Source: Bdellovibrionales bacterium | Lineage (GTDB): Bacteria; Bdellovibrionota; Bdellovibrionia; Bdellovibrionales; UBA1609 | Direction of reading: 5' to 3' | Length of the DNA stretch: 64,000 nt | Assembly (NCBI GenBank): GCA_028819305.1 | Contig: JAPPLY010000057.1 | Location: 30,432-94,431 of the forward strand | Shown: positions 3,890 to 61,773 of the stretch, piece after piece | Numbering within the stretch: the stretch's first letter is position 1 | How the letters are laid out: every line of letters starts with the position of its first letter | Translations under genes and position numbers: made by a program | The notes under the pieces: generated by a model | Database searches by the model: none | Told to the model about the DNA's origin: nothing | What the model saw: the letters and a program-made list of their open reading frames with translations, nothing else

Positions 3890-4702
3890 GTGAGGAAGAA
3901 AGTGAATATTAAAATTATTATAGGCTTAAGTAGTTTATGCTTACTTTCTCTTTTTGCCCTATTAGCCCCTCTTATTCGTCCTTATGATCCTTTAGCTATG
4001 AATTTATCCCGTTTGCTAGAGGTTCCTAGCTTAAAACATCCTTTCGGTTTGGACGAAAACGGAATGGATCTGCTCTCTCAAGTGCTTTACGGCGCGCGTG
4101 TTTCTCTATGGGTGGCAGGACAGGTAGTGTGTATTAGCCTTTTAGTGGGCTTGATGGTAGGTTCTATATCGGCTTGGTTCGGTTCGGTTGTAGATCAGAT
4201 TTTAATGCGTTTGGTGGATATGGTTTCGGCTTTTCCAAGATTTTTGTTGGCCTTAGCTCTTTTAGCTATGTTGGGGACTAGTGTGTTTAATTTGATTTTA
4301 GCTCTTTGTCTTTCCGGGTGGGCGGGCTTTGCCCGTTTAGTCCGAGCAGAAGTTTTACATCTGAAGAAAGAAGAGTATGTTTTAAGTGCTTTATCTTATG
4401 GAGCTGGTCCCGTAAGAGCTATGGTTTGTTATATCTGGCCCAATCTTTTAGGGCTTTTGTTAGTGCAAGCGGCTTTTTCCTTAGTGGCGGTGGTAATAGC
4501 GGAAGCGGGTTTAAGTTTTTTAGGTTTAGGAGTGCCGCCGGATATCCCTAGCTGGGGCCGGCTTTTAAGTTCGGGCCGGCAGGTTTTGGGAGAGGCCCCT
4601 CACTTAAGCCTTTTCCCAGGGCTTGCTTTATTTTCTTTAGTTTTAAGTTTTCAGCTTTTAGGAGATGGTTTAAGGGATTTTTTTGATCCTACCACTCAAT
4701 AA
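3890..4702 (+). CDS. ABC transporter permease, DppC/OppC family
   Basis: 270 aa. HPFGLDENGMDLLSQVLYGARVSL and the C-terminus PGLALFSLVLSFQLLGDGLRD are typical OppC/DppC blocks. GTG start 17 nt after the upstream permease. Confidence 0.85.
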   Translation: MRKKVNIKIIIGLSSLCLLSLFALLAPLIRPYDPLAMNLSRLLEVPSLKHPFGLDENGMDLLSQVLYGARVSLWVAGQVVCISLLVGLMVGSISAWFGSVVDQILMRLVDMVSAFPRFLLALALLAMLGTSVFNLILALCLSGWAGFARLVRAEVLHLKKEEYVLSALSYGAGPVRAMVCYIWPNLLGLLLVQAAFSLVAVVIAEAGLSFLGLGVPPDIPSWGRLLSSGRQVLGEAPHLSLFPGLALFSLVLSFQLLGDGLRDFFDPTTQ

Positions 4703-4913
4703 AGCCAGGGGGGGTTAATTGGTGCACTTCTTGGCAAAGTTGGTAAGCTAAAAAGAAAAACAACTCAATAAAGCCAGGGGGTTTAATTGGTGCACTTAAC
4801 TAGTTTATATGAAGTGTGATGGGGATACCTGGTTCAATAAGCCAGAAGATTTTTCCTGAAAGTAGTCTCTTTTTATAACACTCAATAAACCAAGAGGATT
4901 TTATTTGGTGAAG
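4694..4913 (+). repeat. Decaying tandem array of four copies of the dppC stop / RBS / start junction (family J related)
   Basis: actcaataaagccagggggggttaattggtgcactt 4694-4729; actcaataaagccagggggtttaattggtgcactt 4763-4797; ttcaataagccagaagatttttcc 4833-4856; actcaataaaccaagaggattttatttggtgaag 4880-4913. Copy 1 contains the dppC stop. Copy 4 contains the nagZ SD and TTG start. Confidence 0.8.
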
Positions 4914-5993
4914 AGTATGCAAACAAATGTTTCCATTTGGATAGGAATAAAAAGTTTTTCTTTGTCCCTGGAGGAAAAAAGAGCTATCGAGGAAGGCTTT
5001 ATTTCCGGAGTGCTTCTTTTTAAAAGAAATATAGAATCTTTATCTCAGCTATGGGAACTATGTCAGGAAATTCATAGTTTAAGACCGGCTCCCATCATTG
5101 CTATAGATCGGGAAGGGGGAGAGGTGGATCGCTTAAAACATCTCCCGGAGTATCCTCTTTGGCCTTCTCCAGCCGAACTGGCCCGGGTCTGTTCTTTAAA
5201 AGAGATTGAAAAAACCGCACTCTATATGTCTCAGGAAATAAGAGATTTAGGTATCTGTGTTAATTTTGCACCCTGTGTGGATATTCCCTCTGTATGTAAT
5301 CCTCTTTTTAAAGGCCGGCTTTGGGGAAAAAACTCAAAATCTATATCAGAAAAAGCGATCGCCTGGTTAAAGGGAGTTAAAAAAGCGGGATTAGCCTCTT
5401 GTGCAAAGCATTTTCCAGGTCATGGAGGAGTGAAGGAAGACTCCCATTTCGAGTTGCCAGTAGATCAAAGGAAATTTGAAATATTGAAAAATAGAGATAT
5501 CTTACCTTTTCAGGAAATGATTACGGAGAAAGTGGATATGATTATGACAGCACATGTGCTTTATCCTGAAGTGGATGCTCTTCATCCCGCCACTTTGTCT
5601 TCCTTTTTTTTACAAAAAGGGCTGAGAGAGAAAATGTCCTTTTCAGGACTGATTGTTTCTGATGATTTAGATATGAAAGCTTTGTATAAGGCCAATACTT
5701 CCTTACCGCAAGTTATGGTGCAGGCCCTGGAAGCCGGGGTGGATATTTTGTTAAAATGCAGTCCTTGTGCAAATGGATGGGAATGGGTGGAGGAGTTTAA
5801 GGAAGCTTTGAGTCAAAAAAAAATAGATCGGGAGCAAATTCAAAAAAATAAAGCAAGAGAGATTCGTATAAGTCAATTTAGGCAACAGTACTCTCACATA
5901 AAACCCTGTTCGTCTTTTAAAGGCTTAAAAAAAAGGTCCCAAAGTTTTGGGAACTGGTGTGATGAGTTACACAAAAGAATAGAGTCCATATAA
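4905..5993 (+). CDS. nagZ: Beta-N-acetylhexosaminidase NagZ (GH3, peptidoglycan recycling)
   Basis: AKHFPGHGGVKEDSHFELP (KHFPGHG...DSH motif) and GLIVSDDLDMKAL. SD aagagga lies 6 nt before the TTG at 4905. Confidence 0.85.
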   Translation: MVKSMQTNVSIWIGIKSFSLSLEEKRAIEEGFISGVLLFKRNIESLSQLWELCQEIHSLRPAPIIAIDREGGEVDRLKHLPEYPLWPSPAELARVCSLKEIEKTALYMSQEIRDLGICVNFAPCVDIPSVCNPLFKGRLWGKNSKSISEKAIAWLKGVKKAGLASCAKHFPGHGGVKEDSHFELPVDQRKFEILKNRDILPFQEMITEKVDMIMTAHVLYPEVDALHPATLSSFFLQKGLREKMSFSGLIVSDDLDMKALYKANTSLPQVMVQALEAGVDILLKCSPCANGWEWVEEFKEALSQKKIDREQIQKNKAREIRISQFRQQYSHIKPCSSFKGLKKRSQSFGNWCDELHKRIESI

Positions 5994-6109
5994 TAAGAGT
6001 TTAAAACACGATGGGTCTAATTTTAGAGATTAGGTTTTTTTTGTTATTATGAATTGATGGTATAATAAAGTTATTAGTGTTTTTTGTTTAAAAGGGATGG
6101 AAAAAAATA
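5901..6109 (+). repeat. Direct repeat DR1 (209 bp): last 93 nt of nagZ plus 116 nt downstream
   Basis: Read base by base against 6781-6990. The two are identical except for an A8 versus A9 homopolymer (5927-5934 vs 6807-6815). Confidence 0.95.
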
Positions 6110-6196
6110 CCCGTAGGGTATAGTGTTTTTCCTAAGAGAATAGAGGTCAAAGAGCTTCAGGCATGTGTTTTGCCTCTATGGATAAGGCAGAAAACC

Positions 6197-6229: not shown

Positions 6230-6363
6230 ATACTTGGCAAGTTGAGTTCTTCGGGGGAAGTTTTTTATTATGATAATATACTCAATCCGGTTTGAATCCT
6301 CCAAGAGAAAAGAAACTTTGAAGGACGCAAATTCTATACCAGTTCGGATAGAATAAGGAACTT

Positions 6364-6780: not shown

Positions 6781-6874
6781 AAACCCTGTTCGTCTTTTAA
6801 AGGCTTAAAAAAAAAGGTCCCAAAGTTTTGGGAACTGGTGTGATGAGTTACACAAAAGAATAGAGTCCATATAA
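6781..6874 (+). pseudogene. Detached, frame-shifted copy of the last ~31 codons of nagZ
   Basis: This is the portion of DR2 corresponding to nagZ 5901-5993. It has an extra A in the homopolymer, no start codon and no upstream gene body. Confidence 0.7.
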
Positions 6875-6990
6875 TAAGAGTTTAAAACACGATGGGTCTA
6901 ATTTTAGAGATTAGGTTTTTTTTGTTATTATGAATTGATGGTATAATAAAGTTATTAGTGTTTTTTGTTTAAAAGGGATGGAAAAAAATA
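6781..6990 (+). repeat. Direct repeat DR2 (210 bp), second copy of the nagZ 3' end plus downstream sequence
   Basis: Starts immediately after the hicA stop (TGA 6777-6779). See DR1. Confidence 0.95.
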
Positions 6991-7076
6991 GACATATAGT
7001 TTTTTATTTTATCTAAACATGAGATATACCGATCAGGTTTGAAAATGCCGGATGTAAAGACGGGGTAGTTCGTAGC

Positions 7077-7127: not shown

Positions 7128-8156
7128 ATGAATCGTTTTTTAGCTTTTTTTCTTGTGTCTTTTCTTTTGCACCTAACAGTAGGAGCTTTTCTGCTTTCTC
7201 GCTCTGGTGTGTTAGGGGGAAAAGGGGTAGAAAGCACGGAGTTAACTGACTTAGAAGAAGTTTCTATGGAAGCATCCCCAAGCGGAGAAACGGAAACAGA
7301 GATTTTAGAAAAAAAAGTAAAAAAAATAAAATCTCCCCCCCTTCCTAAACCAAAACCTAAAAAAAAGAGGAAGAAAAAACCGGTTAAAACTCCATCGGCT
7401 TCGTCTCCGCTAAAAAAACAAGCACCCCCGGTGACTAAGCCGCCTATTGTGTCTGAACCCGCTAAGACGAAATCAGATGGAAAAGAGAGGGAAGAGACAG
7501 TTTCCAAGCAAAAGCCGGACCAAGGGGAATCAGAAGAAGTACCTGAAAAAACTTTAGAAAAAAAGAAAGAAACAAAAGAGGAATGGGTGGATGAGAGCGA
7601 AATCGTGCCTCCCCCCACCTCCTCAGCTCCGCCTGAAAAAGCCGAACCAAAAGAAGAAAAAGAAGCTCCTCGTGATGTAAAAAAACAGGAGTCTCAAGGG
7701 GAGTTAAAAGAACCAAAAGCCTCTCCACCGATAGAGGGGGAAGAAAAAAAACCAGATGAAAACCAAAAACCTTCTGTTCCTCCACCGGGGGCGCAGATGG
7801 AAAAAAGCGAGGTTCCTTCTTTAGATGTGGGGGCCGCTCGTATGCACAACCAGTTAAAACAATTGGAAGGTAACCCCCTTCCCGTTTATCCTAAAGAGGC
7901 TTTAAAAAAAAGATGGGAAGGAAGAGCAGAGATATTTTATTATGTCAATCGAGCCGGGTTTGTGGAAAAAATTCAGCTTAAAAACTCCTCCGGGCATTCT
8001 GCTTTAGACAATGCAGCCCTTCGTGCTCTATCTCGTTATCGCTATTACCCGGGTCAAGAAGGCTGGGTCAAACATCCCGTGGAGTTTCTTTTGGATTTAA
8101 GTAAGGAAGTAAAAGAGATCGCTCCCTTAGGAACCTCCACCCCTCCTCCACAATAA
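7128..8156 (+). CDS. TonB-family energy transducer
   Basis: N-terminal TM (FLAFFLVSFLLHLTVGAFLL), a long Pro/Lys/Glu-rich spacer, and a C-terminal TonB_C block PVYPKEALKKRWEGRAEIFYYVNRAGFVEKIQLKNSSGHSALDNAALRALSRYRYYP. Confidence 0.8.
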   Translation: MNRFLAFFLVSFLLHLTVGAFLLSRSGVLGGKGVESTELTDLEEVSMEASPSGETETEILEKKVKKIKSPPLPKPKPKKKRKKKPVKTPSASSPLKKQAPPVTKPPIVSEPAKTKSDGKEREETVSKQKPDQGESEEVPEKTLEKKKETKEEWVDESEIVPPPTSSAPPEKAEPKEEKEAPRDVKKQESQGELKEPKASPPIEGEEKKPDENQKPSVPPPGAQMEKSEVPSLDVGAARMHNQLKQLEGNPLPVYPKEALKKRWEGRAEIFYYVNRAGFVEKIQLKNSSGHSALDNAALRALSRYRYYPGQEGWVKHPVEFLLDLSKEVKEIAPLGTSTPPPQ

Positions 8157-8245
8157 AGCCAAAGGCTTTTAATTGGTAAACTTATGTAGAATTTCTGTTT
8201 CCCCTGTCTTTCTTTTAAAGCCAAAGGTTTTTGTTGTTGTGAAAT
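8151..8245 (+). repeat. Two family J copies spanning the tonB-like stop codon
   Basis: caataaagccaaaggcttttaattggtaaactt 8151-8183 (contains stop TAA 8154-8156) and ttaaagccaaaggtttttgttgttgtgaaat 8215-8245. A further aaagccaaaaatctaatt lies at 9097-9114. Confidence 0.6.
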
Positions 8246-10383: not shown

Positions 10384-11244
10384 ATGAAAAAAAAATGGCT
10401 ATATTCTTTTTTTTTCCTTAGTTCTTTATCATTAGAGATGTTTTCTTTTTTCCCTTTAGGGGAAGCTTATATTCCCTCTTATTCCATGATCCTTTCCCAT
10501 TTGGCTGACGCTCAGGGTAAAGGAGGCTATCTTATTGAACAGGAAGTGGTTTTTAAAGAAGGGGCAGAACCTCTTTTTTTAAAAGAGATATGGTGGATCG
10601 CTAGCTCCCAGGAGATGCGTTTGGATGTGGTGAGTGCAAAAAAAACTCTAAAGAAAAAAGATATACAGGCTGGTGGTTCTTCTAAGCTTTATTTACGTTT
10701 TCTTTACAAAGGAGGTAAAAAAATCTTCCGAGACGAAAACAGTCGCCTGCAAAGGCACCCTCTTTCTCCTTATCATTTAGAAAAACCATTTCATTTAAGA
10801 AGTGAAGAAAAATTAAGAAAACTTTTTTCCCTTTGGAGAGTAGCTCCTTATGAAGCGCCGGAAAGAAAAGAAGGTCAAGGTTCAGATTCTTTCACGCGGC
10901 TGAGTCGAAAAGGAGGTGTAATACAGTATCAAATAGGAAAAGGCTTGTCTCATGTATGGGTGGAGCAGGATGAATTTGTGATTCGTTCCTGGAAATGGGC
11001 TTCTGGAGAAAGTTTAAGTGCCGGGGCTTATGTGCTTTATCCAGGCTCCTTGTTTTATCCCTCTTTTAAAGTTTTTCGTCAAAATGCAATGGAAGTGGGT
11101 ATGCAAACACAAAAAGTAAAAAGGTGGAAGGGGAATAAAAAACAGATGCGCATCAAAATTCTTTCTAAAAAAAATACCTTACCAGACCATCTTTCTTCCG
11201 TAGAGCAGGATAGAATTCGTGAGTTTTACGCAAAGTTTCGGTAA
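10384..11244 (+). CDS. Secreted hypothetical protein
   Basis: 286 aa. N-terminal signal-like MKKKWLYSFFFLSSLSLEMFSFF. Divergently arranged with 9109..10353. No family recognised. Confidence 0.4.
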   Translation: MKKKWLYSFFFLSSLSLEMFSFFPLGEAYIPSYSMILSHLADAQGKGGYLIEQEVVFKEGAEPLFLKEIWWIASSQEMRLDVVSAKKTLKKKDIQAGGSSKLYLRFLYKGGKKIFRDENSRLQRHPLSPYHLEKPFHLRSEEKLRKLFSLWRVAPYEAPERKEGQGSDSFTRLSRKGGVIQYQIGKGLSHVWVEQDEFVIRSWKWASGESLSAGAYVLYPGSLFYPSFKVFRQNAMEVGMQTQKVKRWKGNKKQMRIKILSKKNTLPDHLSSVEQDRIREFYAKFR

Positions 11245-17201: not shown

Positions 17202-18239
17202 ATGAAGTTAGATAATTTTATTTCTCGAACTTTGACGGCGGTAGGGGCCTTTACCTTTTTCATTCTAGTTTGGTTTTTTTTTCCAGAAAAAGGAATGCCT
17301 TTGCTCGTCTTTGTCATTATGGGTGCTTTGGTTTGGGAATATGAACGATTGGTTTTTATGCCGAGTTGGTCAGGAAATAGCCGCCTTCCGAGTTTCTGTT
17401 CTCTTTTTGGAAAAAAGAGGACCCTGGAAAACCAAGGTTCTTTAGAAACAGGGAACTGTTCTCGTGAAAAAGAGGATCTATCCTCATCCCCCCCTTCCGC
17501 GAGTTTCGTTGGGAGTAAACCAACAGGGTACAATAAAGGCTTTTTTTTATTTTTTCTTTTATCTTCTTTATTTTTTTATTGTTTCTATTTTTTTAAAAAA
17601 CAAAATGTGCTGGAGTTATTTTTCATCTTCTTGTTTTTGTTTTTTGTTTTTGTTTTTTGGATTTTACATAAAAAAAAGAGGGAGCAGATTTTTCATGGAC
17701 TTTGTTTTAGTCTGGTAGGTTGGCTTTATATCGTTTTGCCTTCGGTTTTGTTTTTGGATATGTTTTTACATCAAAAAACGAACACCTGGATTTTATTTTT
17801 ATGTGTTGTATTTTTAGGAGATATTTTTGCTTACCTGGGAGGTCAGCTAAGGGGAAGTAAAAAATGGGCACCCGCTCTTTCTCCTGGAAAAACATGGTTT
17901 GGCTTATTTTGTGGTTTGCTGGCCAGTGGAATAGGTGCTGTGGTTTTAAGTTTTTATATAGATATATATGATGGACAACATGCTTCCCGCTTCGGGACAG
18001 AAATATTTGATTTCCCCTTTTCTTTTTTTCTTTTTATTTTTGGGGCTGTTTTGTTTTTTATTGCTCAAACAGGAGACCTATTCGTCTCTTTACTTAAAAG
18101 ACAAGCGGGTGTGAAAAACAGTGGTTGTTTATTACCGGGCCATGGAGGATTGTTAGACCGTTTAGATGGGCTTTTGTTGGCTTTACCTTTTGTGTATTTT
18201 ATAACTCAGTTGGATCCCTTTTTCATTAAAATCAATTGA
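17202..18239 (+). CDS. cdsA: Phosphatidate cytidylyltransferase (CDP-diglyceride synthase) carrying a 58-codon in-frame repeat insertion
   Basis: The C-terminal signature SLLKRQAGVKNSGCLLPGHGGLLDRLDGLL matches the CdsA S..KR..g.KD.g..iPGHGG.lDR.D motif. 345 aa, against the 285-aa E. coli CdsA as I recall it. Confidence 0.9.
   Translation: MKLDNFISRTLTAVGAFTFFILVWFFFPEKGMPLLVFVIMGALVWEYERLVFMPSWSGNSRLPSFCSLFGKKRTLENQGSLETGNCSREKEDLSSSPPSASFVGSKPTGYNKGFFLFFLLSSLFFYCFYFFKKQNVLELFFIFLFLFFVFVFWILHKKKREQIFHGLCFSLVGWLYIVLPSVLFLDMFLHQKTNTWILFLCVVFLGDIFAYLGGQLRGSKKWAPALSPGKTWFGLFCGLLASGIGAVVLSFYIDIYDGQHASRFGTEIFDFPFSFFLFIFGAVLFFIAQTGDLFVSLLKRQAGVKNSGCLLPGHGGLLDRLDGLLLALPFVYFITQLDPFFIKIN
17358..17531 (+). 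repeat. Family E repeat element inserted in frame in cdsA (174 nt)
   Basis: Starts atgccgagttggtcaggaaatagcc (compare caccgaaccggtcaggaaatcg at 57372). Ends gggagtaaaccaacagggtac (compare ggggatcaaaccagatcagtat at 40392). 174 = 58 x 3. Confidence 0.7.
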
Positions 18240-18477
18240 ATAATTAAAATCAGGCAAAATTGATTTTTTATAATTGTTAAATTGACTCTTTCTTCTTTTT
18301 TTGTCTTCTGGATTTGATGTTTTTCGTGCTGTCTTTTCCGCACAATAAAGTAAAAGCTGATTATAAATACTAGTTTGATTATTTGTAATAGTTTCTAGAA
18401 TCTCAAAATCCATGTAAAAATATAAAAAAATAAAAAAGGAACTGGTGTTTTTAAACGGGATCAGTATAATATAATTC

Positions 18478-20928: not shown

Positions 20929-21948
20929 GTGTCTCGGATGGAAAAAGAAATCCAGGTTTCTCCAGAACAGGAAGGTTTAAGGTTGGATATTTTCTTATCT
21001 CAATATGTTTCCAGTCGTTCGCAGGCGGAAAAGATAATAAAAAAAGGATGGGTGAAAAGTGTCCGTGCCGGATCTTGTGAAAGTGTTAAACCTTCTCATA
21101 AGGTAAAGGCAGGTGAGTGTTATCGCTTTTTTTTAAGAGATACAGCCCTTTCGGAAAAGGACTCGTTAAAACCCTATGATTATGATATTCCTATATTATA
21201 TGAAGATACAGATATATTGGTGATAAATAAGCCCGCTGGTATAGTAGTGCACCCGGGAGCTGGACACGAGCAAGATACTTTAGTGAACGCTTTAATTGGA
21301 AAAGTGCCTTTATCTTCCGGGGGGGATCCCCTAAGACCAGGTATTGTTCACCGTTTAGATAAAGGGGTCAGTGGTCTTTTGCTTTTAAGTAAAACCGATA
21401 GGGCTCAGAGTTTTTTAATTGAACAGTTTAAATCTAGGAAAATTAAACGTATTTATCGGGCCTTAGTCCTGGGGTCAGTGAAAAAACATTCTGGGCGGGT
21501 GTTTAGTTTTATTGGTCGGCACCCTAAAGATAGAAAAAAGTTTTACTCCTTTGATAAAGAAGTAACAGGGGCTAAAAAAGCTCTGACTCACTATCAGGTT
21601 ATAGAGTCTTTTCAAGATGACCTTCACCATATTCAATGTTGTTTAGAAACAGGGAGGACCCATCAAATACGGGTTCATTTAAGTCAGGAAGGCTTGCCTA
21701 TTTTAGGAGATGAAGTCTATGGTTCCCGTCGCCGTCAAAGCAAAGCTTTAAATCGTATGACTAAAGAATTATATCCAGCTGGTCAGGAAAATTCGTTTTC
21801 ACAGATAGCTCTTTATTCCGCTTTCTTGGAGTTTATTCACCCGATAGAACAGAAATTGTTGAGCTTTTCTCTTCCCTGGCCTGAGAAATTTCATCCCTTT
21901 ATAAAAAAATTGGGTTTTAGCCCTAAAGGGCCTGATTTTTCAGGATAG
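20929..21948 (+). CDS. rluD: 23S rRNA pseudouridine synthase, RluD family
   Basis: S4-like N-terminus (GLRLDIFLSQYV...SRSQAEKIIKKG), catalytic HRLDKGVSGLLLLSK, ETGRTHQIRVHL. Confidence 0.85.
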   Translation: MSRMEKEIQVSPEQEGLRLDIFLSQYVSSRSQAEKIIKKGWVKSVRAGSCESVKPSHKVKAGECYRFFLRDTALSEKDSLKPYDYDIPILYEDTDILVINKPAGIVVHPGAGHEQDTLVNALIGKVPLSSGGDPLRPGIVHRLDKGVSGLLLLSKTDRAQSFLIEQFKSRKIKRIYRALVLGSVKKHSGRVFSFIGRHPKDRKKFYSFDKEVTGAKKALTHYQVIESFQDDLHHIQCCLETGRTHQIRVHLSQEGLPILGDEVYGSRRRQSKALNRMTKELYPAGQENSFSQIALYSAFLEFIHPIEQKLLSFSLPWPEKFHPFIKKLGFSPKGPDFSG

Positions 21949-23395: not shown

Positions 23396-23986
23396 ATGTC
23401 TCTTTTTAATTATAACTCCAAGGAAATTCATTGTAAGGTCATCTATTACGGTCCGGTAGGAGCTGGTAAGACCACTAATATCAAATGGATCTGCCGAAAT
23501 ACTTTAGATCAAAAGTGGGATGTGTTTTCCATTCCTTTGCAGACAAAACCCAGCGCTTTCTTTGATTTTTTGCCTTTGGATATCGGTTCCATTCGGGGGT
23601 TTAAAACGCGATTTCACCTTTATACCATTCCGGGAAATGATTTATTTGAAACTTCTCAAAAACTCTTGTTGAAGGGAGTTGATGGTATCGTGTTTGTTGT
23701 GGATTCACAAAAAGGTAAAATGGAGGAAAATGAAAAATCTATGAACCAGCTAAAACAATATTTAAGTGAAGAAGGCTTATCTTTAGAAAAAATTCCTATG
23801 GTTATACAGTACAATAAAAGAGATCTACCGGATATTCATTCTATTACACATATTCGTACAGCCTTAAATTATTATAATCATCCTGATTTTTCAGCTTGTG
23901 CTGAAAAAGGGCAAAATGTTTTTGAGCCTTTAAAAACGCTTTTAAAGATGGTCCTTACTGTTCTGAAAGGGGGTCGTTTTCAATAA
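23396..23986 (+). CDS. mglA: MglA-family Ras-like small GTPase (gliding/polarity GTPase)
   Basis: Collinear with my recollection of the M. xanthus MglA sequence. NYNSKEIHCKVIYYGPVGAGKTTN, FFDFLPL, IRGFKTRFHLYTIPGN, LLKGVDGIVFVVDSQ, VIQYNKRDLP. Starts 2 nt after the recR stop. Confidence 0.9.
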   Translation: MSLFNYNSKEIHCKVIYYGPVGAGKTTNIKWICRNTLDQKWDVFSIPLQTKPSAFFDFLPLDIGSIRGFKTRFHLYTIPGNDLFETSQKLLLKGVDGIVFVVDSQKGKMEENEKSMNQLKQYLSEEGLSLEKIPMVIQYNKRDLPDIHSITHIRTALNYYNHPDFSACAEKGQNVFEPLKTLLKMVLTVLKGGRFQ

Positions 23987-24233
23987 TCCTTGAGTTTACT
24001 ATGTAATAATTTCTCCATGCGCCAAAGTTCTGAAAGGGGGGTGCTTTCAATAATCCTTGAGGAGAACAATCTGGAATTTTATTTTAAATGTTTTGAGATA
24101 AGGTCGTTTTCAATTCTTCTTAAAAAAGGTCTTTTACTGTTTGATGAGTTTGTTCCGTTTGGTTTTATTTTCTTAAAAATGGTTTTTATAAATTTATTAG
24201 TCAGAAAAGTGTTTCAATTATAGAATCTTAAGG
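23960..24233 (+). repeat. Decaying tandem array of copies of the mglA 3' end (stop-codon-spanning 35-mers)
   Basis: gttctgaaagggggtcgttttcaataatccttgag 23960-23994 (contains stop TAA 23984-23986); gttctgaaaggggggtgctttcaataatccttgag 24027-24061; gagataaggtcgttttcaattcttcttaa 24095-24123; tcagaaaagtgtttcaattatagaatcttaagg 24201-24233. The period is ~67 bp for the first three copies. Confidence 0.8.
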
Positions 24234-35638: not shown

Positions 35639-36601
35639 ATGGAAGAAATATCTTTTAAGCCTTTAAGTGAAGGTTTAGGTTTTTATGACCCTCCTTTACA
35701 GATTGGGGTTTCCGGTCCTTCTAAAAAAATAGCTGATTTACAGAAAAAGAATTTTTTATCCTCACCGGAATGGCCTGAATCTCTCCTATCTGGATCCTTG
35801 GACTTGGACAATTTACAAAATTATGAGCATCTTATATCTTTATTAGAAAAACCGTGGTTAGGAAAAAAGAGCTCGGGTTTTTTTTCAGGGAACAGATCTA
35901 TGATCCTGGAAAATAAGGAAGAAGAAAACCCAGCTTCTTCTCCTGTAACAAGAACCCCTGGTCTTTCTAAAAATCTTATAAAAAAAAACACTCAAGAGCC
36001 TTCTTCCGTATCACCGGTAAAAACCACTTTAGACCGCTCCGGTCAGGAATTTACGAACTCTGAACTTCGTTCATTTTTGGGAAAAAGCTTACGGAAACTA
36101 CAAAAGACAAGCCAGGTTAGTATATCCGCCTCGGACAAGAAGGATATTCTAAATAAAAATACTTTGACCGAACCGTCTTTAAATAAAAATCAGTTGGTTC
36201 CTAAAAAAACATTTTATTTTTCCTTAAAAGCTTACCTGGTGGATACCTTTATTATTTCTTTATTGTTTTTTCCGCCTTTTGCTTTATTTGTGTTTCTAAC
36301 TCAACCCGTTCCTATGGCTGTACTTCCATCGGTATGGCCTCAGATTCTGTTAACCTTTCTGTGTTTTTCTCAAATTTACTGTCTGTTATGTCGTTTGTTT
36401 TGTTTTGAAACCTATGGAGAGGCTCTTGCTAAGATAAGACTTTGCCATTTAGATTCTTCAAAAGAAGTGCATCCCTACAGATGGCTTTTGCGATTTTTTG
36501 TTTCTTGTGCCACTGGTTTTATTTTTCTCCCTTTGTTGTCTCTTATCTTTAGGAAAGATTTTACGGCTCGTCTAACGGGGCTTTATTTTCAAAAAATATA
36601 G
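35639..36601 (+). CDS. Membrane protein, possibly RDD family
   Basis: 320 aa. Soluble Ser/Lys-rich N-half. The C-half has TM helices and LKAYLVDTFIISLL ... ETYGEALAKIRL, reminiscent of RDD-domain proteins. Confidence 0.35.
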   Translation: MEEISFKPLSEGLGFYDPPLQIGVSGPSKKIADLQKKNFLSSPEWPESLLSGSLDLDNLQNYEHLISLLEKPWLGKKSSGFFSGNRSMILENKEEENPASSPVTRTPGLSKNLIKKNTQEPSSVSPVKTTLDRSGQEFTNSELRSFLGKSLRKLQKTSQVSISASDKKDILNKNTLTEPSLNKNQLVPKKTFYFSLKAYLVDTFIISLLFFPPFALFVFLTQPVPMAVLPSVWPQILLTFLCFSQIYCLLCRLFCFETYGEALAKIRLCHLDSSKEVHPYRWLLRFFVSCATGFIFLPLLSLIFRKDFTARLTGLYFQKI

Positions 36602-38557: not shown

Positions 38558-39622
38558 ATGGATCTTCTGTTAAATAGTTCAGTGAAGAATATCTGGTATG
38601 CTTTTTATGAATTAAGGGTGAAAAAAACGGGGCAGGTTCGTTGTGGAGCTTTGTTAAAAGTAGAGTTTAGGGATGGAAAGACGGGTCATGCTGATCTTCA
38701 TCCCTGGCCAGAGAAAGGGGAAGCTCCCTTAAAAGTTCAATTGGACAAATTAAGGAAAAAAGAATGTACGACCTTATGTTCAAGGGTCTTAGCTATTGCC
38801 AGAGAAGAGGCAAAGGCACGAACACAGGAGTTTAATTTACTGAGTTCTTTAAAAATTCCTTTAAGTCATTACCTTATTTCGGATGTAGAAAATTTCTGCG
38901 ATTTAGATAAAGTATTAAATCAGGGTTTTCGCATTTTTAAAGTAAAATTAAATACTCCTTTAAAAAGACAAACACAAAAACTTTTAAGATGGATGCAGAC
39001 TTTAGGTTCTTCTGTTAAATGGCGTTTGGATTTTTATATAAAATTAAACGAGCAACAATGGCGGCGGTGGAGCGAGGAATATTTAGTTAAAATGGATACT
39101 CAATATTTGGATTTTATGGAAGTGCCTTTTCAGTATCAAGAGCGTCTGTGGATGCAATACGAAGAATATCCTTTGGCTTTAGATGTATGGAATGGAAAAA
39201 ATACCTTGCCTGTATCTACTTTAGTGTGGAAAAATTCCAGAAAAAGCGAACCAGAGCTGCTTAGAAAAAAAAGGGCTGGGCTTTTTCAAAGAGTCATTTT
39301 TACTCATAGCCTTTCTCATCCCTTGGATCAACTTTCCAGCGCTTACTTTGCTGCTCGATTTTATAAAATCCATCCTCATTTAAGAGAAGTGTGTGGCTTG
39401 GTTCAAAAGGATGTGTATGAAAATCATAAGTTCACTTTACCCGATCGAGGGCCTTGCTTCCCTCGTCTTTCCGGAAAGGGTTGGGGCTTGGATTCTTTTT
39501 TATTGGATCGTCTTTCCTGGAAGAAATGTTGTTCTTATACTAAACCGATAGAGAAAAAAGAGGCGATAGGAAGAGACTGTAAAGTTACAAAAAAAATAAT
39601 ACCCGCAGGGTATAAAAGATGA
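38558..39622 (+). CDS. menC: o-Succinylbenzoate synthase (enolase superfamily)
   Basis: KxK motif FRIFKVKLN, metal-ligand-like WRLDFY / LDFMEVPF / LALDVW, position between menA and menE, ATGA overlap with menE. Confidence 0.65.
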   Translation: MDLLLNSSVKNIWYAFYELRVKKTGQVRCGALLKVEFRDGKTGHADLHPWPEKGEAPLKVQLDKLRKKECTTLCSRVLAIAREEAKARTQEFNLLSSLKIPLSHYLISDVENFCDLDKVLNQGFRIFKVKLNTPLKRQTQKLLRWMQTLGSSVKWRLDFYIKLNEQQWRRWSEEYLVKMDTQYLDFMEVPFQYQERLWMQYEEYPLALDVWNGKNTLPVSTLVWKNSRKSEPELLRKKRAGLFQRVIFTHSLSHPLDQLSSAYFAARFYKIHPHLREVCGLVQKDVYENHKFTLPDRGPCFPRLSGKGWGLDSFLLDRLSWKKCCSYTKPIEKKEAIGRDCKVTKKIIPAGYKR

Positions 39623-40965
39623 AAACAGCTTTCTATAAAATTAATCCTTCTCAAGTGGATTGGGAATCAGAAAATTCCTTGGTGTTTTTTAATGAGAAGC
39701 ACGCAAAAAAAGATATTTTTGTATCTTCTATACCCCAGCTTCCTTATTTAAAATCACATGTATGGCTAGCTACCTCCGGTAGGGTTTGTCAAAAATGGGT
39801 CGCTCTTTCCAAGGAAGCTTTACTCACTTCCGCTCAAGCGGTTAATCGGCATCTCCATGTTACGGAGAAGGATCGTTGGGGGCTTTGCCTTCCTTTGTTT
39901 CATGTAGGAGGTTTAGCTATTTTAGCTCGTGCTCACCTATCTCATAGCTCTTGCTTTTTATTTTCAGGAAAATGGTCCGCTTCTTCTTTTTTGGCCTTTT
40001 TAAATCAAAATAAGATCACTTTGAGTTCTCTCGTTCCTGCACAAGTGTATGATATAGTAAAAGCTCAACACGCTTGTCCTTCTTTTTTAAGGGCGGTTGT
40101 AGTGGGAGGAGAAAGTTTAAACCCCATCCTTTACCATGCCGCCCGAAAGCTAAATTGGCCCTTACTTCCTTCCTACGGTCTTACGGAATGTGCTTCTCAG
40201 GTGGCTACAGCCGAGTTAGACACTCTTATACCGCACCGGTCAGAAACCCCTGCCGTTCCCCGCGAAGCCAGATTTCGCGAAAGCAGAGGCGAGGACCAGC
40301 TTCACAGAGGCATGTTTTCGAACTCCGCTTCCTCCCTAGAAGGAGCTTCCCTTAGGAAGGAGTTTACAAAAACCACAAAACCAGCCCTCCTGGGGATCAA
40401 ACCAGATCAGTATGATAAAATGGAAATGCCTAAAATGAAAACCCTTTCTCATGTTCAAGTTAAGATTATTCAAAAAAAAGTGGCTATTCAGTCCGGGAGT
40501 CTTCTTAGTGGTTTTGTATCTCTTTTACCTTCGTCTTCTCGTTTAGAGTTTCAAAACCCGAGTCAGGACGGCTGGTACTTTACCGAAGATAAAGGCTCTT
40601 TAGAGGGGTCTTTTTTACAAATAGATAACACGGCTCAAATAAAAATATTAGGAGAGAAAATAAACCTAGAGGGTTTGGAAGACACACTAATGAATATTGT
40701 ATTAAAAAAAAAAGAAATAGCGGGGCAATACATTCTTCTCCCTATACCTAGTGAGAGAGAAGGATTTCAAATAGCTCTTATTTCAGATGTTTTTAACAGG
40801 CCGGTTTTAGCTGATCTTATTCAGGAATTTAATAAGAAAGTCTCTCCTTTTGAAAGAATTAGGAAGTTTTATCTCGTTCCTGAATTAACTTTTACTGATA
40901 TTTCCAAACTTTCAAAGCAAGCTTTACTTAAAAAAATGGCCTTCTCTTCAGAAAAGCGGGCTTAA
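39619..40965 (+). CDS. menE: o-Succinylbenzoate-CoA ligase carrying a 62-codon in-frame repeat insertion
   Basis: Adenylate-forming enzyme blocks: LATSGRVCQKW (degenerate TSGTTG.PK), SYGLTECASQV (YG.TE), GWYFTEDKG, KILGEKINLEGLE. Men operon context. Confidence 0.75.
   Translation: MKTAFYKINPSQVDWESENSLVFFNEKHAKKDIFVSSIPQLPYLKSHVWLATSGRVCQKWVALSKEALLTSAQAVNRHLHVTEKDRWGLCLPLFHVGGLAILARAHLSHSSCFLFSGKWSASSFLAFLNQNKITLSSLVPAQVYDIVKAQHACPSFLRAVVVGGESLNPILYHAARKLNWPLLPSYGLTECASQVATAELDTLIPHRSETPAVPREARFRESRGEDQLHRGMFSNSASSLEGASLRKEFTKTTKPALLGIKPDQYDKMEMPKMKTLSHVQVKIIQKKVAIQSGSLLSGFVSLLPSSSRLEFQNPSQDGWYFTEDKGSLEGSFLQIDNTAQIKILGEKINLEGLEDTLMNIVLKKKEIAGQYILLPIPSEREGFQIALISDVFNRPVLADLIQEFNKKVSPFERIRKFYLVPELTFTDISKLSKQALLKKMAFSSEKRA
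40228..40413 (+). repeat. Family E repeat element inserted in frame in menE (186 nt)
   Basis: ataccgcaccggtcagaaacccc ... accagcttcaca ... aaaccacaaaacc ... ggggatcaaaccagatcagtat. The termini and internal blocks match the intergenic copy 56582-56769 (atatcgaaccggtatagaaccccc ... accagcttcaca ... agggatcaaacaagatcagtat). 186 = 62 x 3. Confidence 0.8.
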
Positions 40966-41319: not shown

Positions 41320-41536
41320 GTCAATTGTGGTAGTTATATTGTTTTTTATAGTTTATGTCGGATTTAGTTTGATCTCTGTGGCGGGGGCGAAGATGTGATT
41401 TTTCGGTTGTTTCGTTCTTTTTTCCCAAAGGAAGAGAGAAGGTTCCCCGTGCTATGCCAGTTCGGTATAATTGATAATTGCAGATGAATAGAAAAGAAAA
41501 TGGGAACAAAGTAAGGTAGAAGAGGTTTAGAAAATC

Positions 41537-45301: not shown

Positions 45302-46876
45302 ATGAAAGTAAATAGAACTCACTTTTTTTCTTTTTTTTTAATGGCTCTTGTACTTTTTCCGGTGTTTGTTTTTTTGTTTAAAGTTCCTCTGTTACAGTTT
45401 CCTGCTTCTTCTGAGTGGTTTGAAGTTTTTATTTCTACTTTGCTGCAAGCGGGATTGAGCGCTTTTTTTTCTGTTTTGCTTGGGATCTTTGGTGCTTTAG
45501 GACTTTGTGCTTTTTCAAATATACCGAATCGGTATCGAAAAAAGAGGAATCTTCAGAGGCCCTCACTGCCTTTGGGAGAAAACAAAAAGACGCCCGGAAA
45601 GAGCAAAACAGATTGGAATAGTATAAAAAAGAAAGGGTTGGAGCTTTTCTGTCTTCTACCTGCTCTACTCCCTCCTTTGATTCCAGTTTTAGCCTGGATT
45701 AATGTATTTGAGTTTTTTTATCATTTTCCTTTTTCTTTTTATTCTGTTTTGGCGATTCATATATGTATGAATGTGGGTTTTACTTCGGTTTTCTTTTTTC
45801 GTTTGTTTCAAAATCAAACAGGTTCCCTCCCAGCATGGGCTTTTTTACATGGTGTAAGCCGCTTATATTTTTTAAAAAAGATATTATTTTTTGAGTTCAG
45901 AAAAGATATTATACTTATTTTCTTATTAATATTTTCTTTTTGTTTTACTAGTTTTTCCGTCCCTCTGCTTATAGGGGGAGTGAGTGGTCAAACTATGGAA
46001 GTATTTATTGCGGAAAAACTTAAAGACCCTGCTACCTGGCCGGAAGCGATGGCTTTATTTACTATAGAAACGGTATTTATTTTTATCTTTTTTATCTTAC
46101 TTTATGGGAGGGAAGAAAAAGAGGTGAGAATTGTAAAACAGACAGAGCCATTATATTTATTGCCCTGTCTGCCGTTTTTGATTTTACCGGTATTGCCTTC
46201 TTTGTTAATTTTTTTGGGGTTGGGGGATGTGTTTTCTTCAGAAGCCGTCTGGCGGGATTTATTTACTATTAAGGAGAGTGTGGCTATGGCTGTCATACAA
46301 ACTTTGTTTGTTGGTATAGGCACAGGGCTTTTAGTGCTTTTTTTATTAGCCTTTGTGGCTTTTTGCCTACGGGATCTTTTTTTGCGTCATTTTCTTGTGG
46401 CCTATTCTGGAGCTTCCGTGGCTTTTATGGGTTTTGCTTTTTTACTCATAGGTTCGGATGGTCCTATAACAGTAGGGATGAAGTGGTCTGTCGGTTTGGC
46501 TTTGCTTTTTTTACCAACTTTATATCGTTTAATGGGAGAGTCTCTTCTACGACGATTAAAAAATCAAATCCAACTGGCTGATCTTATGGGAGCTAGTAGA
46601 GGTTTAAGTTTTATTAAAGTTATCTGGCCTCAATGTGCTGGTGTTTTCTTTTTTCTTTCCGGTATAGCGGCTTTTTGGGCTTGTGGGGATTTTGCATATT
46701 CTTCTATTGTGGCAGGTGAACAAACGCATTTGGCACTACTTATTCAAGATCTATTTTCCTCTTATCGTTTTGAACTGGCTACAGTGCTGACTTGGTTTTT
46801 GATTTTGAGTGGCACTTTTTGTTTTTCTTTGTTTGCAGGAGGAGCTTTTGTCTTATATAAAAAATCTTATTTGTAA
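45302..46876 (+). CDS. thiP: Thiamine ABC transporter permease (duplicated two-module type)
   Basis: 524 aa, ~12 TM, between thiB and thiQ. Contains a short family E insertion. Confidence 0.7.
45521..45625 (+). repeat. Short family E element inside thiP, reading through in frame
   Basis: ataccgaatcggtatcgaaaaaag (compare gataccgaaccggtatagaaaag at 26124) ... gagcaaaacagattggaatagtataaaa. Translates to [35 protein letters not shown] between two TM helices. Boundaries are accurate to about 3 nt. Confidence 0.55.
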
Positions 46877-50249: not shown

Positions 50250-52217
50250 TTAATAATTAGTAATGAGGACTTCTTTTAGCTTCTTTTTCTTATTATTATA
50301 ATAGTTGATATAATTGCTCTCTATTTTATGAACACTGTATTTTTTCATCCACTTAATTAATGAGCTATTTTTGTGTCCGTTATAATGAGTGACATTTGAA
50401 AAAGCAAACCTAACATTTTTTTTGTTTAAATCATCTATTAAAGATAGTAGATCAACCTCTAGTTTGTCATTCCAAAGTTTATTGTATTCACTACCTGTTA
50501 TTAAATAAGGGGGATCTAGATAAATAAAGTCATCTTTTAGATAATTTTTTTTGTTTAAAAATTTTTTAAAATTTTTTGTTGTGAGCTTTATATTTTTACC
50601 TTGAACAAAAGAAAAGTAATCGTTAAGAGCCTTAACGACATTTTTGTTAAAATCCACATTACCTACAGGTAAATTAAATTTCCCCCCGCCATTGAATCTA
50701 AGCATTCTGTTAAAGCCATATATAAGTAAAACATAAAGAATCAAAGGATCATTTTCTTTATGTTTATTAGCTTGTTTACGTAATTTTTCATAACCAACTT
50801 TATTAAATTGAGCATAGTAGGTTTTTTTAAAAGATTTTTTTAAAGAATCCGGAACAATATCTTTTTTATAGGAGTGGGAAAGATTATATTTGTGTATAAT
50901 CTTTTCAATATTCTTAAAAAAGTTCTTTTGATGGGAAGCACTGTTTATTAAGAATTTATGTATATTTATTAGATTTTTATCTATGTCGTTTAAAAAATAT
51001 TTTTTAGCTTGAATATTTAAAAAAACAGTTCCTCCTCCTACGAAAGGTTCATAAAAATGATTTATTTGTTTAGGAAATAAATCATTTAACTGATTCATTA
51101 ATTTATATTTATCTCCCACATAAAATAGAGGAGATCTTTTTATTTTTCTTTTATTTTCTACTTTGGTTATAAATAAATACTCTTTGTGATTATTAAAATG
51201 GGTGTTTCCGGCATTAAAGTAGCGATAGTCTTTTTCAAAAGTTTTGGTCTTTCCTCTTTGATTTAATATATCTGTTATTTCTTCTAATGAAATTTTATTT
51301 TGGGATGAACTGCTTTTAGAAAGATAAGTATTGTTATAAGACACCACCAGATGTTTTGTTTTTATATTCTTAATTAATTCAGAAAACCGGTCTTTAGCAC
51401 TTTCTTTACAATAGTCGCTCATGTTTTCTCTCTTTGGTTTTAAAGCCACTCCATATAGCTTGGGATGATCCCATTTTGTGAGAGTTTCCAAAATATGATA
51501 AAACCGGCTGTACTGTCTGGAATTATAAGGAGGATCAATATAAACAATATCGGCTTTAATTTTTTTAACTAAGGTATTTGTGTCTTCTCTAAAAATAGAA
51601 AGAGATTTTATGTCAATAGGTTGAATTAAGCTCATATAAAAATTGTCTCTGATAAAATTTTTTTTAAAGTAAGCGTCGTAGTGTCCGACTGTGTTGGCAA
51701 TTTTGTCTGTAGAATAAAGAAGGGAAGCTATTAAAATGTGGTATTCCTTCTCTGTAAAATCTTTTTTATTATCTTCGATGTGTTGTCTGATAAATCCAAT
51801 GATTTTTGCAGAATCTTTAGAGAAATATTTTTTTCCAAAGTTTTTGGAAAAATAATTGCCGGTTAAATTTTTAACATTGATATTATTATAGTGATTTATA
51901 ACAGAGTTTAGGTTGTTTTGATTCCAATGTCCTTTTTTAAAAAAAGCCTTATAAATAATATAATTGGAATAAAGAAAGTCATTTAAAATAATTTTATTAA
52001 AATATTTACTGGCTGTAGCTCCCACAATACCTGTGCCGGCAAAAATGTCGGCAAAGGAATCCCCTGAGCATTCTCTATTAAGGGTAGAAAAAATCCAATT
52101 TGCTAATCTATATTTATTACCAATGTATCTGCGGTTTTGTAGTTGAAAAAATGGATTTGGTGGAAAGGAAAAAAAATCATTAGACTTTTGATTAAAAAAG
52201 CTTTTTTGTATTTCCAT
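50250..52217 (-). CDS. Tandem double-domain N6-adenine DNA methyltransferase (two D12/Dam-class modules, M.FokI-like architecture)
   Basis: Module 1: RRYIGNKYRL, FADIFAGTGIVG, IVYIDPPYNSRQYSRFYHILE. Module 2: PLFYVGDKYKLMNQL, FYEPFVGGGTVF, FIYLDPPYLITGSEYN, C-terminal EVLITNY. Each module has an F.G.G SAM loop and a DPPY motif. Confidence 0.85.
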   Translation of the reverse strand: MEIQKSFFNQKSNDFFSFPPNPFFQLQNRRYIGNKYRLANWIFSTLNRECSGDSFADIFAGTGIVGATASKYFNKIILNDFLYSNYIIYKAFFKKGHWNQNNLNSVINHYNNINVKNLTGNYFSKNFGKKYFSKDSAKIIGFIRQHIEDNKKDFTEKEYHILIASLLYSTDKIANTVGHYDAYFKKNFIRDNFYMSLIQPIDIKSLSIFREDTNTLVKKIKADIVYIDPPYNSRQYSRFYHILETLTKWDHPKLYGVALKPKRENMSDYCKESAKDRFSELIKNIKTKHLVVSYNNTYLSKSSSSQNKISLEEITDILNQRGKTKTFEKDYRYFNAGNTHFNNHKEYLFITKVENKRKIKRSPLFYVGDKYKLMNQLNDLFPKQINHFYEPFVGGGTVFLNIQAKKYFLNDIDKNLINIHKFLINSASHQKNFFKNIEKIIHKYNLSHSYKKDIVPDSLKKSFKKTYYAQFNKVGYEKLRKQANKHKENDPLILYVLLIYGFNRMLRFNGGGKFNLPVGNVDFNKNVVKALNDYFSFVQGKNIKLTTKNFKKFLNKKNYLKDDFIYLDPPYLITGSEYNKLWNDKLEVDLLSLIDDLNKKNVRFAFSNVTHYNGHKNSSLIKWMKKYSVHKIESNYINYYNNKKKKLKEVLITNY

Positions 52218-56570: not shown

Positions 56571-56581
56571 ATTTTTAAATT

Positions 56582-56769
56582 ATATCGAACCGGTATAGAA
56601 CCCCCGCTCCCGCGAGAACCAGCTTCACAAGGACCGGGTTTTCTCATTCCTACTTCTCCCCCAGAAGAGAATCACTACCTGATTCATATAAAAAATCGGA
56701 CAACATATTCTTGCCCTCCACTTGTGCGGGGGCAGGGTGCATGGGTAGTAGGGATCAAACAAGATCAGT
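56582..56769 (+). repeat. Family E repeat element (reference intergenic copy, between alaS start and recX end)
   Basis: atatcgaaccggtatagaacccccgctcccgcgagaaccagcttcaca ... gtgcgggggcagggtgc ... agggatcaaacaagatcagtat. It explains ORF-track entry 56481..56831. Confidence 0.8.
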
Positions 56770-56871
56770 ATAGAGCAATTACTGCTTTGTTATCAAGTTT
56801 TTATTTTTTACTTGTATGGCTATTTTTTTAGGATGTCCTTTGTTTATAGAAAAGATTGCTTTCCTTATTTT

Positions 56872-57318: not shown

Positions 57319-57371
57319 TAGAAATGAAAATTAATATTTATAGGAAACAAAATCCAGTTTTATTTTGTGTT

Positions 57372-57700
57372 TCACCGAACCGGTCAGGAAATCGTATCTC
57401 TCAGAGGGTCTCTTTGGAAGATAAAAAAAGAGACCCTCGAAAAACTCTGTCTCCGCGAAGGTTGTTTCCACAAAATGACTCCTCGTGAAAACGGGGGAGT
57501 GGGGCTAGATTCCTGTTTCTACAGAATTGACAAGCTAGAGAAGTTTGTCCTTATGAGAACAGGGAGCGCGGGGACCTTTTTCCTCACGGACAGGGGGGAT
57601 CAAGGAGGACCGAAAATTTTAGGATATACAGAAAAAGACCTGTCCCTTGAAGGGGGGTAAGGGGGTAAGGGGGTAAGGGGGGATCAAATCAGATGAGTAT
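57372..57700 (+). repeat. Family E repeat element, long variant (329 nt) with a G-run microsatellite
   Basis: tcaccgaaccggtcaggaaatcg start. 10-bp perfect hairpin gagggtctct...agagaccctc. ccacaaaatgac block. Ends ggggggatcaaatcagatgagtat. It explains ORF-track entry 57367..57660. Confidence 0.8.
57652..57682 (+). repeat. (GGGGGTAA)n microsatellite / canonical G-quadruplex motif
   Basis: ggggggtaagggggtaagggggtaagggggg: four G5-6 runs separated by TAA loops. Confidence 0.9.
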
Positions 57701-57708
57701 AAATGATT

Positions 57709-61743: not shown

Positions 61744-61773
61744 ATCTCATAAACATAGAAGGTGGTGAAATCT

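Follow-up and report, generated by a model that had tools for sequence, protein, structure and literature searches.

A probable decayed MITE-type repeat read in frame within cdsA of a Bdellovibrionales bacterium, and the family to which it belongs

Selfish repeats that lie in frame within conserved genes are best known from Rickettsia, and their entry into genes, their tolerance there and whether they ever create functions are still puzzling. According to the accounts of Rickettsia palindromic elements (RPEs) in two later papers, RPEs have inserted in frame in many conserved genes and are tolerated by them (Ogata et al. 2000, 2002, as cited in PMC2229807 and PMC10969869). [quoted passage not shown] Here we describe the same phenomenon, at high local density, in an unrelated uncultured lineage, within a 64,000-nt stretch of contig JAPPLY010000057.1 (assembly GCA_028819305.1, Bdellovibrionales bacterium), hereafter the window. 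One of the host genes is cdsA, which encodes an essential integral-membrane enzyme, phosphatidate cytidylyltransferase. An earlier reading of the DNA letters alone (the sequence-only reading) had proposed that cdsA and menE are each interrupted in frame by the same element. We find a new MITE-type repeat family that behaves like RPEs, the phenomenon itself being already known, and the 174 extra nucleotides of cdsA are probably an old, decayed copy of this non-autonomous repeat, which would be translated with the gene and nearly neutral.

Like RPEs, the family consists of short (~100–150 nt), multi-copy, non-coding units with inverted ends, found both between genes and in frame in unrelated housekeeping genes. 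In both cases the copies are old and decaying, and the extra surface or loop peptides appear to be tolerated by the protein (here on the assumption of translation); the host genomes are small and AT-rich, and the present host may be eukaryote-associated, with Arf and leucine-rich-repeat (LRR) genes nearby. The differences are that our host is labelled Bdellovibrionales rather than Rickettsia, the two families being set apart by host and structure; that RPEs are predicted to form long stem-loops whereas the present copies fold no better than shuffled sequences; and that the present family uses all three reading frames. TA-flanked MITEs (Correia/NEMIS of Neisseria, RUP of Streptococcus pneumoniae, ERIC and YPAL) resemble it in their size of 80–340 nt, ends of the form TATAC...GTATA, high copy number, absence of a transposase gene, and coexistence of shorter and longer variants. 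An IS630-family transposase has been proposed to mobilise RUP. In our family the signs of a TA duplication are no more than suggestive, no partner insertion sequence was seen in the loci read and there is no long stem-loop, and the six ORFs hit in 64 kb look far above the level described for such elements in PMC2229807 and PMC10969869. Of the features expected of a MITE, small size (roughly 50–500 bp) without a transposase ORF, dispersed multiple copies, and terminal inverted repeats, although imperfect ones, are seen, and one filled/empty pair fits a target-site duplication.

The insert in cdsA and its repeat family

The cdsA product matches CTP_transf_1 (PF01148, E=9e-43), the match starting only at residue 115, and the solved Thermotoga CdsA (PDB 4Q2G/4Q2E) aligns to residues 117–336, which form the catalytic part. 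The record of the identical protein names it phosphatidate cytidylyltransferase ('MAG: Bdellovibrionales bacterium'), and the gene order frr-uppS-cdsA-rseP is conserved in two other assemblies. Positions 17,358–17,531 read as had been claimed, as 174 nt or 58 codons without a stop in the cdsA frame. The 58 residues have no counterpart in any of 16 aligned CdsA orthologues, the closest two (79% and 64% identity) included, and are thus not conserved in relatives; the same alignment bears out the claim that they interrupt the protein, directly after the invariant W-E-Y...L.F segment. Aligned as DNA, the syntenic loci in two relatives show a clean gap opposite the insert, and the window CdsA is longer (345 aa) than each of its 120 best database matches (208–324 aa). 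Among the matches listed, a CdsA search of metagenome contigs returned only distant relatives, at 32–36% identity. The GC content of the insert is 47.7%, versus 33.4% for the rest of cdsA.

Copies of the repeat were found by a weight-matrix scan for the end motifs, followed by a profile hidden Markov model (HMM) of seven copies and then one of 16 copies. With the cdsA copy left out, the seven-copy HMM matches 17,357–17,433 at E=3.8e-6, a similarity above background by profile, and the 16-copy HMM, in which the cdsA copy is included, covers 17,356–17,535 at E=2.4e-11. Both end motifs are present in the cdsA copy in the correct order and orientation. Across the family, the end motifs exceed chance by a wide margin, with 0 matches expected after shuffling. 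These matches support the claim that the cdsA and menE inserts are copies of one repeat family. Pairwise alignment against other copies, which the sequence-only reading had proposed, succeeded in part: among four listed copies tested, the Smith–Waterman score against the one at 57,370 is significant (20, versus 11.0 +/- 1.7 for shuffles, 1 of 500 of which reach 20), and the scores against the other three are at background. The seven-copy HMM also recovers three of the four other copies that had been listed, together with a new copy at 34,524, and the copy at 56,580 was recovered only by the 16-copy HMM.

The family has a core of ~100 nt and copies of 80–335 nt, the longer ones carrying extra interior sequence, and none is large enough for a transposase gene, in keeping with the small size of MITEs. 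Its ends are imperfect terminal inverted repeats (5' TATACCGAACCGGT, 3' ACCAGATCAGTATA); when the 5' end is set against the reverse complement of the 3' end (TATACTGATCTGGT), all three mismatches are C/T. The 16-copy model begins with TTATACCGAACCGGT(C/A)AGGAAT, has the conserved middle block ...AACTCCG.TT...CTTGGGAGAAAA...ACAGAAACCACAAAA... and ends with AAACCAGATCAGTATA, and most copies read TA-TACCG...CAGTA-TA. No Rfam match was found for the whole window at gathering thresholds or for the insert at E up to 1, and blastn of a near-consensus copy against plasmid records gave no match. As a separate observation, the longer copies hold nested small GC-rich hairpins such as CCCCGCGAAGCCAGATTTCGCGAAAGC and CCCCGCTTCCGCGGGG (40,262–40,288, 61,600–61,665 and 56,715–56,745), which may represent a further tiny repeat family inserting into the elements.

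Filled, empty and collapsed sites in a sister genome

We compared the window with a sister genome (contig CBDETO010000005.1, 2.07 Mb; flanks of 84–86% DNA identity; cdsA locus L001) and with a more distant relative that serves as outgroup (loci L002/L003). At the cdsA site the sister reads TTTTTATGCCGGATCGGTATCATTTG, that is, the element 5' tip TATGCCG fused to the 3' tip GATCGGTAT, which leaves a 15-nt remnant, in frame, encoding M-P-D-R-Y. The A-to-G variant in this 5' tip is common to the window copy and the sister remnant, and outgroup L002 is without either element tip. As a derived base is common to the remnant and the full copy, and the outgroup has no hairpin at the site, collapse of a once longer copy fits better than a pre-existing target. 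At the menE site, an insert of 186 nt (62 residues) in the window corresponds to one of 60 nt (20 residues; IPNRCGFARGIPDQY) in the sister, both termini being intact; only these two of 15 aligned MenE proteins carry any insert, and the 13 others have none. The finding of collapsed in-frame remnants at exactly the same sites in the sister indicates that the cdsA and menE insertions are old and not recent, and the earlier claim of two independent in-frame insertions is supported.

The sister remnant also bears on whether the extra residues could be a lineage-specific loop expansion with chance similarity to the repeats, or an artefact of metagenome assembly. The background-level similarity to three of the four tested copies and the metagenome-assembled state of the genome would be in line with such a view, but a genome that was assembled independently has a homologous remnant at this very site, an HMM built without the cdsA copy detects it, both end motifs are present, and the GC content jumps within the insert. 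A mis-join by the assembler is excluded, as the copies are too diverged from one another. We regard this explanation as effectively refuted by the sister remnant and the left-out HMM match, and give it a negligible probability.

Collapse has also run in the opposite direction: where the sister carries full copies, in rluD and a short way downstream, the window retains no more than tips, the rluD copy being 93 nt in the sister and the insert longer in the more distant relative. Other sites are filled in one genome and empty in the other, namely the ORF 45302 site (filled in the window, empty in the sister, a 99-nt difference), RDD site 1 (filled in the sister, empty in the window, 93 nt) and the tsaB site (filled in the sister, empty in the window). 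At least four copies are common to both genomes, and together with the filled/empty pairs they indicate that the family was active both before and after the two genomes split. Thereafter, copies decay through frame-preserving internal deletions. Because empty, full and collapsed states are all kept, the sister genome offers a direct view of insertion, in-frame persistence and frame-keeping internal deletion.

Two local rearrangements were seen beside these sites. In the sister rluD (L001 14188–14307), a perfect direct repeat of the element's own 5' end (25 nt, GCTTTAGACCGAATCGGTCAGGAAT; copies spaced by 93 nt) bounds the element, which suggests nested or tandem insertion followed by gene conversion. 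Between menC and menE of the sister (L125 9848–10034), a ~70-nt unit that comprises the element 3' part at the menC end and the start of menE is present in ~4 tandem copies.

Reading frames, orientation and the host proteins

In cdsA, the element is read as TTT ATG CCG AGT TGG TCA GGA at the 5' end and as GGG AGT AAA CCA ACA GGG TAC AAT AAA at the 3' end; in menE, it is read as CTT ATA CCG CAC CGG TCA GAA and GGG ATC AAA CCA GAT CAG TAT GAT AAA. The sequence-only reading was right that orientation and frame agree at both ends of both copies, and it had taken the shared frame as pointing either to selection on a translatable frame or to a mechanism favouring such a frame. We tallied 11 independent genic sites, six in the window and five in the sister (tsaB, rluD, the RDD gene at a second site, and ORFs in loci L060 and L097). 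All 11 are in sense orientation, and the three frames of the element are used five, four and two times. The frame xTT ATA CCG is found in cdsA, menE, ORF 45302 and sister tsaB (four sites), the frame TTA GAC CGx (L-D-R...) at five sites including ORF 35639 (RDD) and the mutY-like ORF 52423, and the third frame, TAT ACC GAA (Y-T-E...), at two, the menC-like ORF 38558 reading TAT ACT AAA. As all three frames are in use, the match between cdsA and menE is a coincidence of about one in three, and the 5, 4, 2 spread does not support the idea of a mechanism that favours one frame.

Stop codons in the element itself account for these patterns. In seven intergenic copies among 16 tallied, 8 of 21 sense frames are free of stops versus 1 of 21 antisense frames; the sense frame that is most often open is also the one most used in genes, and frame usage ranks like stop-freeness. 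The sense orientation of all genic copies thus follows from the element's own stop-codon distribution, and the pattern is explained if insertions survive where they leave the gene open, with no need for a frame-specific insertion mechanism. Selection for a translatable frame, as had been suggested, holds insofar as insertions that keep an essential gene open persist; it fails insofar as no particular frame is favoured. The same data bear on the stronger proposal that there is one preferred insertion frame, or that protein-level selection acts on a peptide module encoded by the element. Its appeal lies in the frame shared by cdsA, menE, ORF 45302 and sister tsaB, with similar end peptides ((I/M)-P-x-(R/W)... 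and ...K-P-x-x-Y), but five genic sites use TTA-GAC-CGx and two TAT-ACC-GAA, the genic copies share no single conserved peptide, most frames of the intergenic copies contain stops, and usage tracks stop-freeness. We consider this proposal very unlikely.

The 52 codons 5' of the insert evolve under purifying selection (dN/dS of 0.26 and 0.15 versus two relatives), so that translation would have to run through the insert. In the AlphaFold2 model of CdsA (mean pLDDT, the predicted local confidence score, of 75.9), residues 60–104 have pLDDT <50 and no secondary structure, and lie between the confident helices 31–52 and 112–132. The topology check proposed earlier is therefore in favour of a loop: the Ser-, Gly- and Pro-rich peptide of the insert is predicted to be disordered and to link transmembrane helices two and three, probably on the cytoplasmic side by the positive-inside rule. 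In-frame, stop-free copies are likewise found in menE, mutY, the RDD-family gene, the permease gene and menC, and the sister has them in its tsaB and rluD. In MutY the copy encodes residues 240–274, in the interdomain linker, residue 227 being the last that aligns to solved MutY structures. In MenE it lies in a loop and splits the AMP-binding domain; a solved MenE structure aligns up to residue 198 and then again from 315. For annotation, this means that such inserts lengthen proteins, break domain matches (as in CdsA, where the Pfam match begins at residue 115) and can be taken for novel domains. We also observed unrelated in-frame inserts at two other loops of MenE in more distant relatives (P0127, P0130, P0131, P0133, P0152 and P0153), for example GQVFWVPAFAGMTEEEGVT, and in-frame repeat insertion may be common across the clade.

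Two further explanations concern what becomes of the peptide. The insert could have been co-opted, the loop giving CdsA a new function in interaction or regulation, or the DNA serving as a regulatory site; it has indeed stayed open and in phase with the gene from a time before the split of the two genomes, and element-derived sequence in rluD is retained in all three genomes compared. However, the sister shrank its cdsA insert to five residues and its menE insert to 20 while keeping both genes, the loop is predicted to be disordered and of low complexity, and the termini have decayed from the consensus whereas the adjoining N-terminal coding sequence is under purifying selection. Co-option consequently seems to us a poor candidate, with a very low probability. 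The element could instead be removed after transcription or translation in the manner of an intron or intein, such that mature CdsA would be without it. This idea was raised only for the position inside essential genes and has no direct support; the insert gave no Rfam match at E up to 1, the three frames yield unrelated peptides, and at 58 residues (~31–33 for core-length copies) it is shorter than mini-inteins, which have ~130 residues. Removal would, moreover, leave no reason for genic copies to be multiples of three and free of stops, which counts against it. We rejected an intein or self-splicing intron on these grounds, and removal is hardly credible.

Origin of the family and its setting in the window

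Taken together, the data are best described by a history in which the element would have entered cdsA in the common ancestor with the sister genome, after the more distant relative had split off, as presence and absence suggest, landing between transmembrane helices 2 and 3, in the connecting loop. Afterwards, the window copy would have diverged and gained interior sequence, and the sister copy would have collapsed to its 15-nt in-frame remnant. As its length is a multiple of three and its frame has no stop, the window copy would be transcribed and translated with cdsA into a 58-residue, Ser/Gly/Pro-rich, predicted-disordered loop that leaves the enzyme core intact, and it would persist because it is nearly neutral and not through a function. 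Purifying selection acting on a stop-poor sense strand and a stop-rich antisense strand would leave all genic copies in sense and in three frames. As a hypothesis only, a transposase acting in trans might recognise the inverted ends and insert at TA, as in the IS630/Tc1-mariner group.

Several observations weigh against this history. Translation of the insert with cdsA is something that we infer from the sequence, and pairwise scores between the cdsA copy and three of the four listed copies tested are individually not significant. The terminal inverted repeats match at only ~11 of 14 positions, and the ~64 kb plus 78 kb read (the window and L001, L002, L003, L060, L097 and L125) yielded neither a transposase gene nor an autonomous element bounded by these ends. 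Nor was a transposase evident in the translations of the window ORFs outside the sister-syntenic region, which were read and not Pfam-scanned. The TA duplication is inseparable from TATA tips that may belong to the element itself, and is clean in one of three filled/empty pairs: at RDD site 1, the best fit, the empty site reads AAAAAAA-TA-GCTG and the filled site AAAAAAA-CA-[GACCG...CAGTG]-TA-ACTG, and in the ORF 45302 and tsaB pairs it is ambiguous, blurred by mutation or by flanks that resemble element ends. Finally, most described bacterial MITEs and RPEs fold, and single-stranded DNA folds of 10 whole copies gave z of -0.2 to -1.8 versus dinucleotide shuffles, with no significant structure.

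This folding result led us to drop both the label 'palindromic element' and the reading of the copies as REPINs, which are doublets of repetitive extragenic palindromic (REP) sequences. In the latter, the elements would be moved by a RAYT, a REP-associated tyrosine transposase of the IS200/IS605-like type, with the hairpin TATACCG-AAC-CGGTATA as recognition unit and solo hairpins as REP singlets. Recurring structure in our family is limited to a 6–7-bp hairpin within the 5' end, which in many copies has a 7-bp stem and a 3-nt loop, and at three sites the genome without the full element keeps a mini-palindrome of element tips; a short hairpin at the element end, solo hairpin remnants beside full units and high density are all reminiscent of REPs and REPINs. 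Against this, whole copies are without the long hairpin that defines REPINs, a conserved 5' tetranucleotide of the GTAG type is lacking, neither a RAYT gene nor any gene with a Y1 transposase domain (Y1_Tnp) was seen among the annotated genes of the loci read, and three other empty sites are clean. The present copies also often lie inside genes, and REPs are extragenic by definition. We judge the REPIN reading improbable, and retain that of a MITE-type repeat.

The window holds 14 HMM matches at E<0.01, besides several remnants recognised by eye (Table 1), and nine further matches were found in ~58 kb of the sister genome. When we searched genome contigs for ACCGAACCGGTMWRGAA, at least 118 loci matched, nearly all of them single chance matches in unrelated genomes, and real copies were present only in loci L060 and L097 of CBDETO01. 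A literature search on repeats in Bdellovibrionota gave nothing relevant. The copy at 56,580 starts 10 nt upstream of the alaS start codon and must for that reason belong to the 5' leader of alaS or to its promoter region.

Table 1. Coordinates in the window of cdsA, of its insert and termini, and of the other copies and remnants of the family.
Feature	Position	Strand	Remarks
cdsA, phosphatidate cytidylyltransferase (host gene)	17202-18239	+	345 aa; Pfam PF01148
Element copy in cdsA	17356-17533	+	Decayed; net 174 nt; ~80 nt extra interior relative to ~100-nt core
5' terminus of cdsA copy, TTATGCCGAGTTGGTCAGGAAA; family consensus TTATACCGAACCGGTCAGGAAA	17356-17377	+	Weight-matrix scan: 10th best plus-strand site in window
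3' terminus of cdsA copy, GGGAGTAAACCAACAGGGTACA; family consensus GGGGATCAAACCAGATCAGTATA	17512-17533	+	Alignment; 16-copy alignment
Copy inside menE (ORF 39619-40965)	40226-40417	+	62 codons; sense; same frame as cdsA copy
Copy inside RDD-family ORF 35639-36601	36029-36127	+	Sense; frame TTA GAC CGC; HMM E=4.4e-19; orthologous copy in sister L125 5697-5792
Copy forming C-terminal 29 residues of menC-like ORF 38558-39622	39535-39621	+	Sense; third frame, TAT ACT AAA; HMM E=4.3e-8
Copy inside ORF 45302-46876, probable ABC-transporter permease	45519-45626	+	Sense; frame of cdsA copy; HMM E=1.4e-11; sister site empty
Copy inside mutY-like ORF 52423-53511 (minus strand)	52694-52794	-	Sense; linker after catalytic domain; HMM E=2.6e-17
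Intergenic copy, shortest in window, ~80 nt	6265-6352	-	Interior resembles 5' half of cdsA copy by eye; HMM
Intergenic copy common to sister genome (L125 4250-4382)	34521-34652	+	HMM
Intergenic copy downstream of menE	41343-41470	-	HMM
Intergenic copy, start 10 nt upstream of alaS start codon (56570, minus strand)	56580-56773	+	16-copy HMM
Intergenic copy, longest (335 nt)	57370-57704	+	Only one of four tested with significant pairwise alignment to cdsA copy
Intergenic copy	61316-61432	+	HMM
Intergenic copy	61579-61744	-	Inverted-repeat listing, HMM
Partial copy, 5' end only, TGATACCGAACCGGTATAGAAA, just upstream of probable dnaX start	26123-26154	+	Weight-matrix scan, HMM
Collapsed remnant inside rluD-like gene, two terminus-like pieces in tandem	21748-21790	+	Comparison with relatives

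Six ORFs with copies in 64 kb is a high local density, in a window that was chosen because it looked unusual. It is conceivable, although we hold it as a tentative and rather doubtful idea, that the lineage is a second, independent and heavier 'Rickettsia-like' case, a host-associated clade of small genomes in which ~10% of genes would carry in-frame copies and the stop-poor sense strand might be an adaptation to genic life. If true, this would provide a large natural experiment on selfish DNA adding loops to proteins, with a graded decay series between sister genomes (from 174 to 15 nt in cdsA and from 186 to 60 nt in menE). An Arf-family small GTPase gene (PF00025) and genes for LRR proteins were observed in the relatives (L001 15832–16422 and 18988–20445; L002 16060–16650), with a window orthologue at ~23.4–24.0 kb; in a ~2-Mb genome labelled Bdellovibrionales, Arf and LRR genes hint at a eukaryote-associated lifestyle, in parallel to Rickettsia.

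A low-GC island on the minus strand (50,250–52,217; GC 0.27 versus ~0.37 elsewhere) holds one ORF of 655 aa, which by eye resembles a doubled Dam/D12-type adenine methyltransferase. The element 3' end GGGGATCAAACCAGATCAGTATA carries two GATC sites, and such sites might link methylation to transposition. Other repeats in the window include a second, unrelated, intergenic family (GGGTTTTAATTGGTAAACTCCGTTAAAATCTATG-like) at its left end (2,419–2,613, 4,688–4,915 and 8,142–8,198, with an inverted copy at 201–260), a 221-nt direct repeat of 93% identity with its copies 881 nt apart (5,915–6,135 and 6,796–7,016), and three tandem ~65-nt units at 23,960–24,124; the direct repeat and the tandem units coincide with length differences from the sister genome. 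Immediately upstream of the rseP start, a motif that resembles the element 3' end, AAAC.GATCAGTATAAT (containing TATAAT), is conserved in all three genomes (window 18,446–18,471; L001 ~10800–10825; L002 10948–11000), and the window has ~214 nt of extra spacer in this upstream region.

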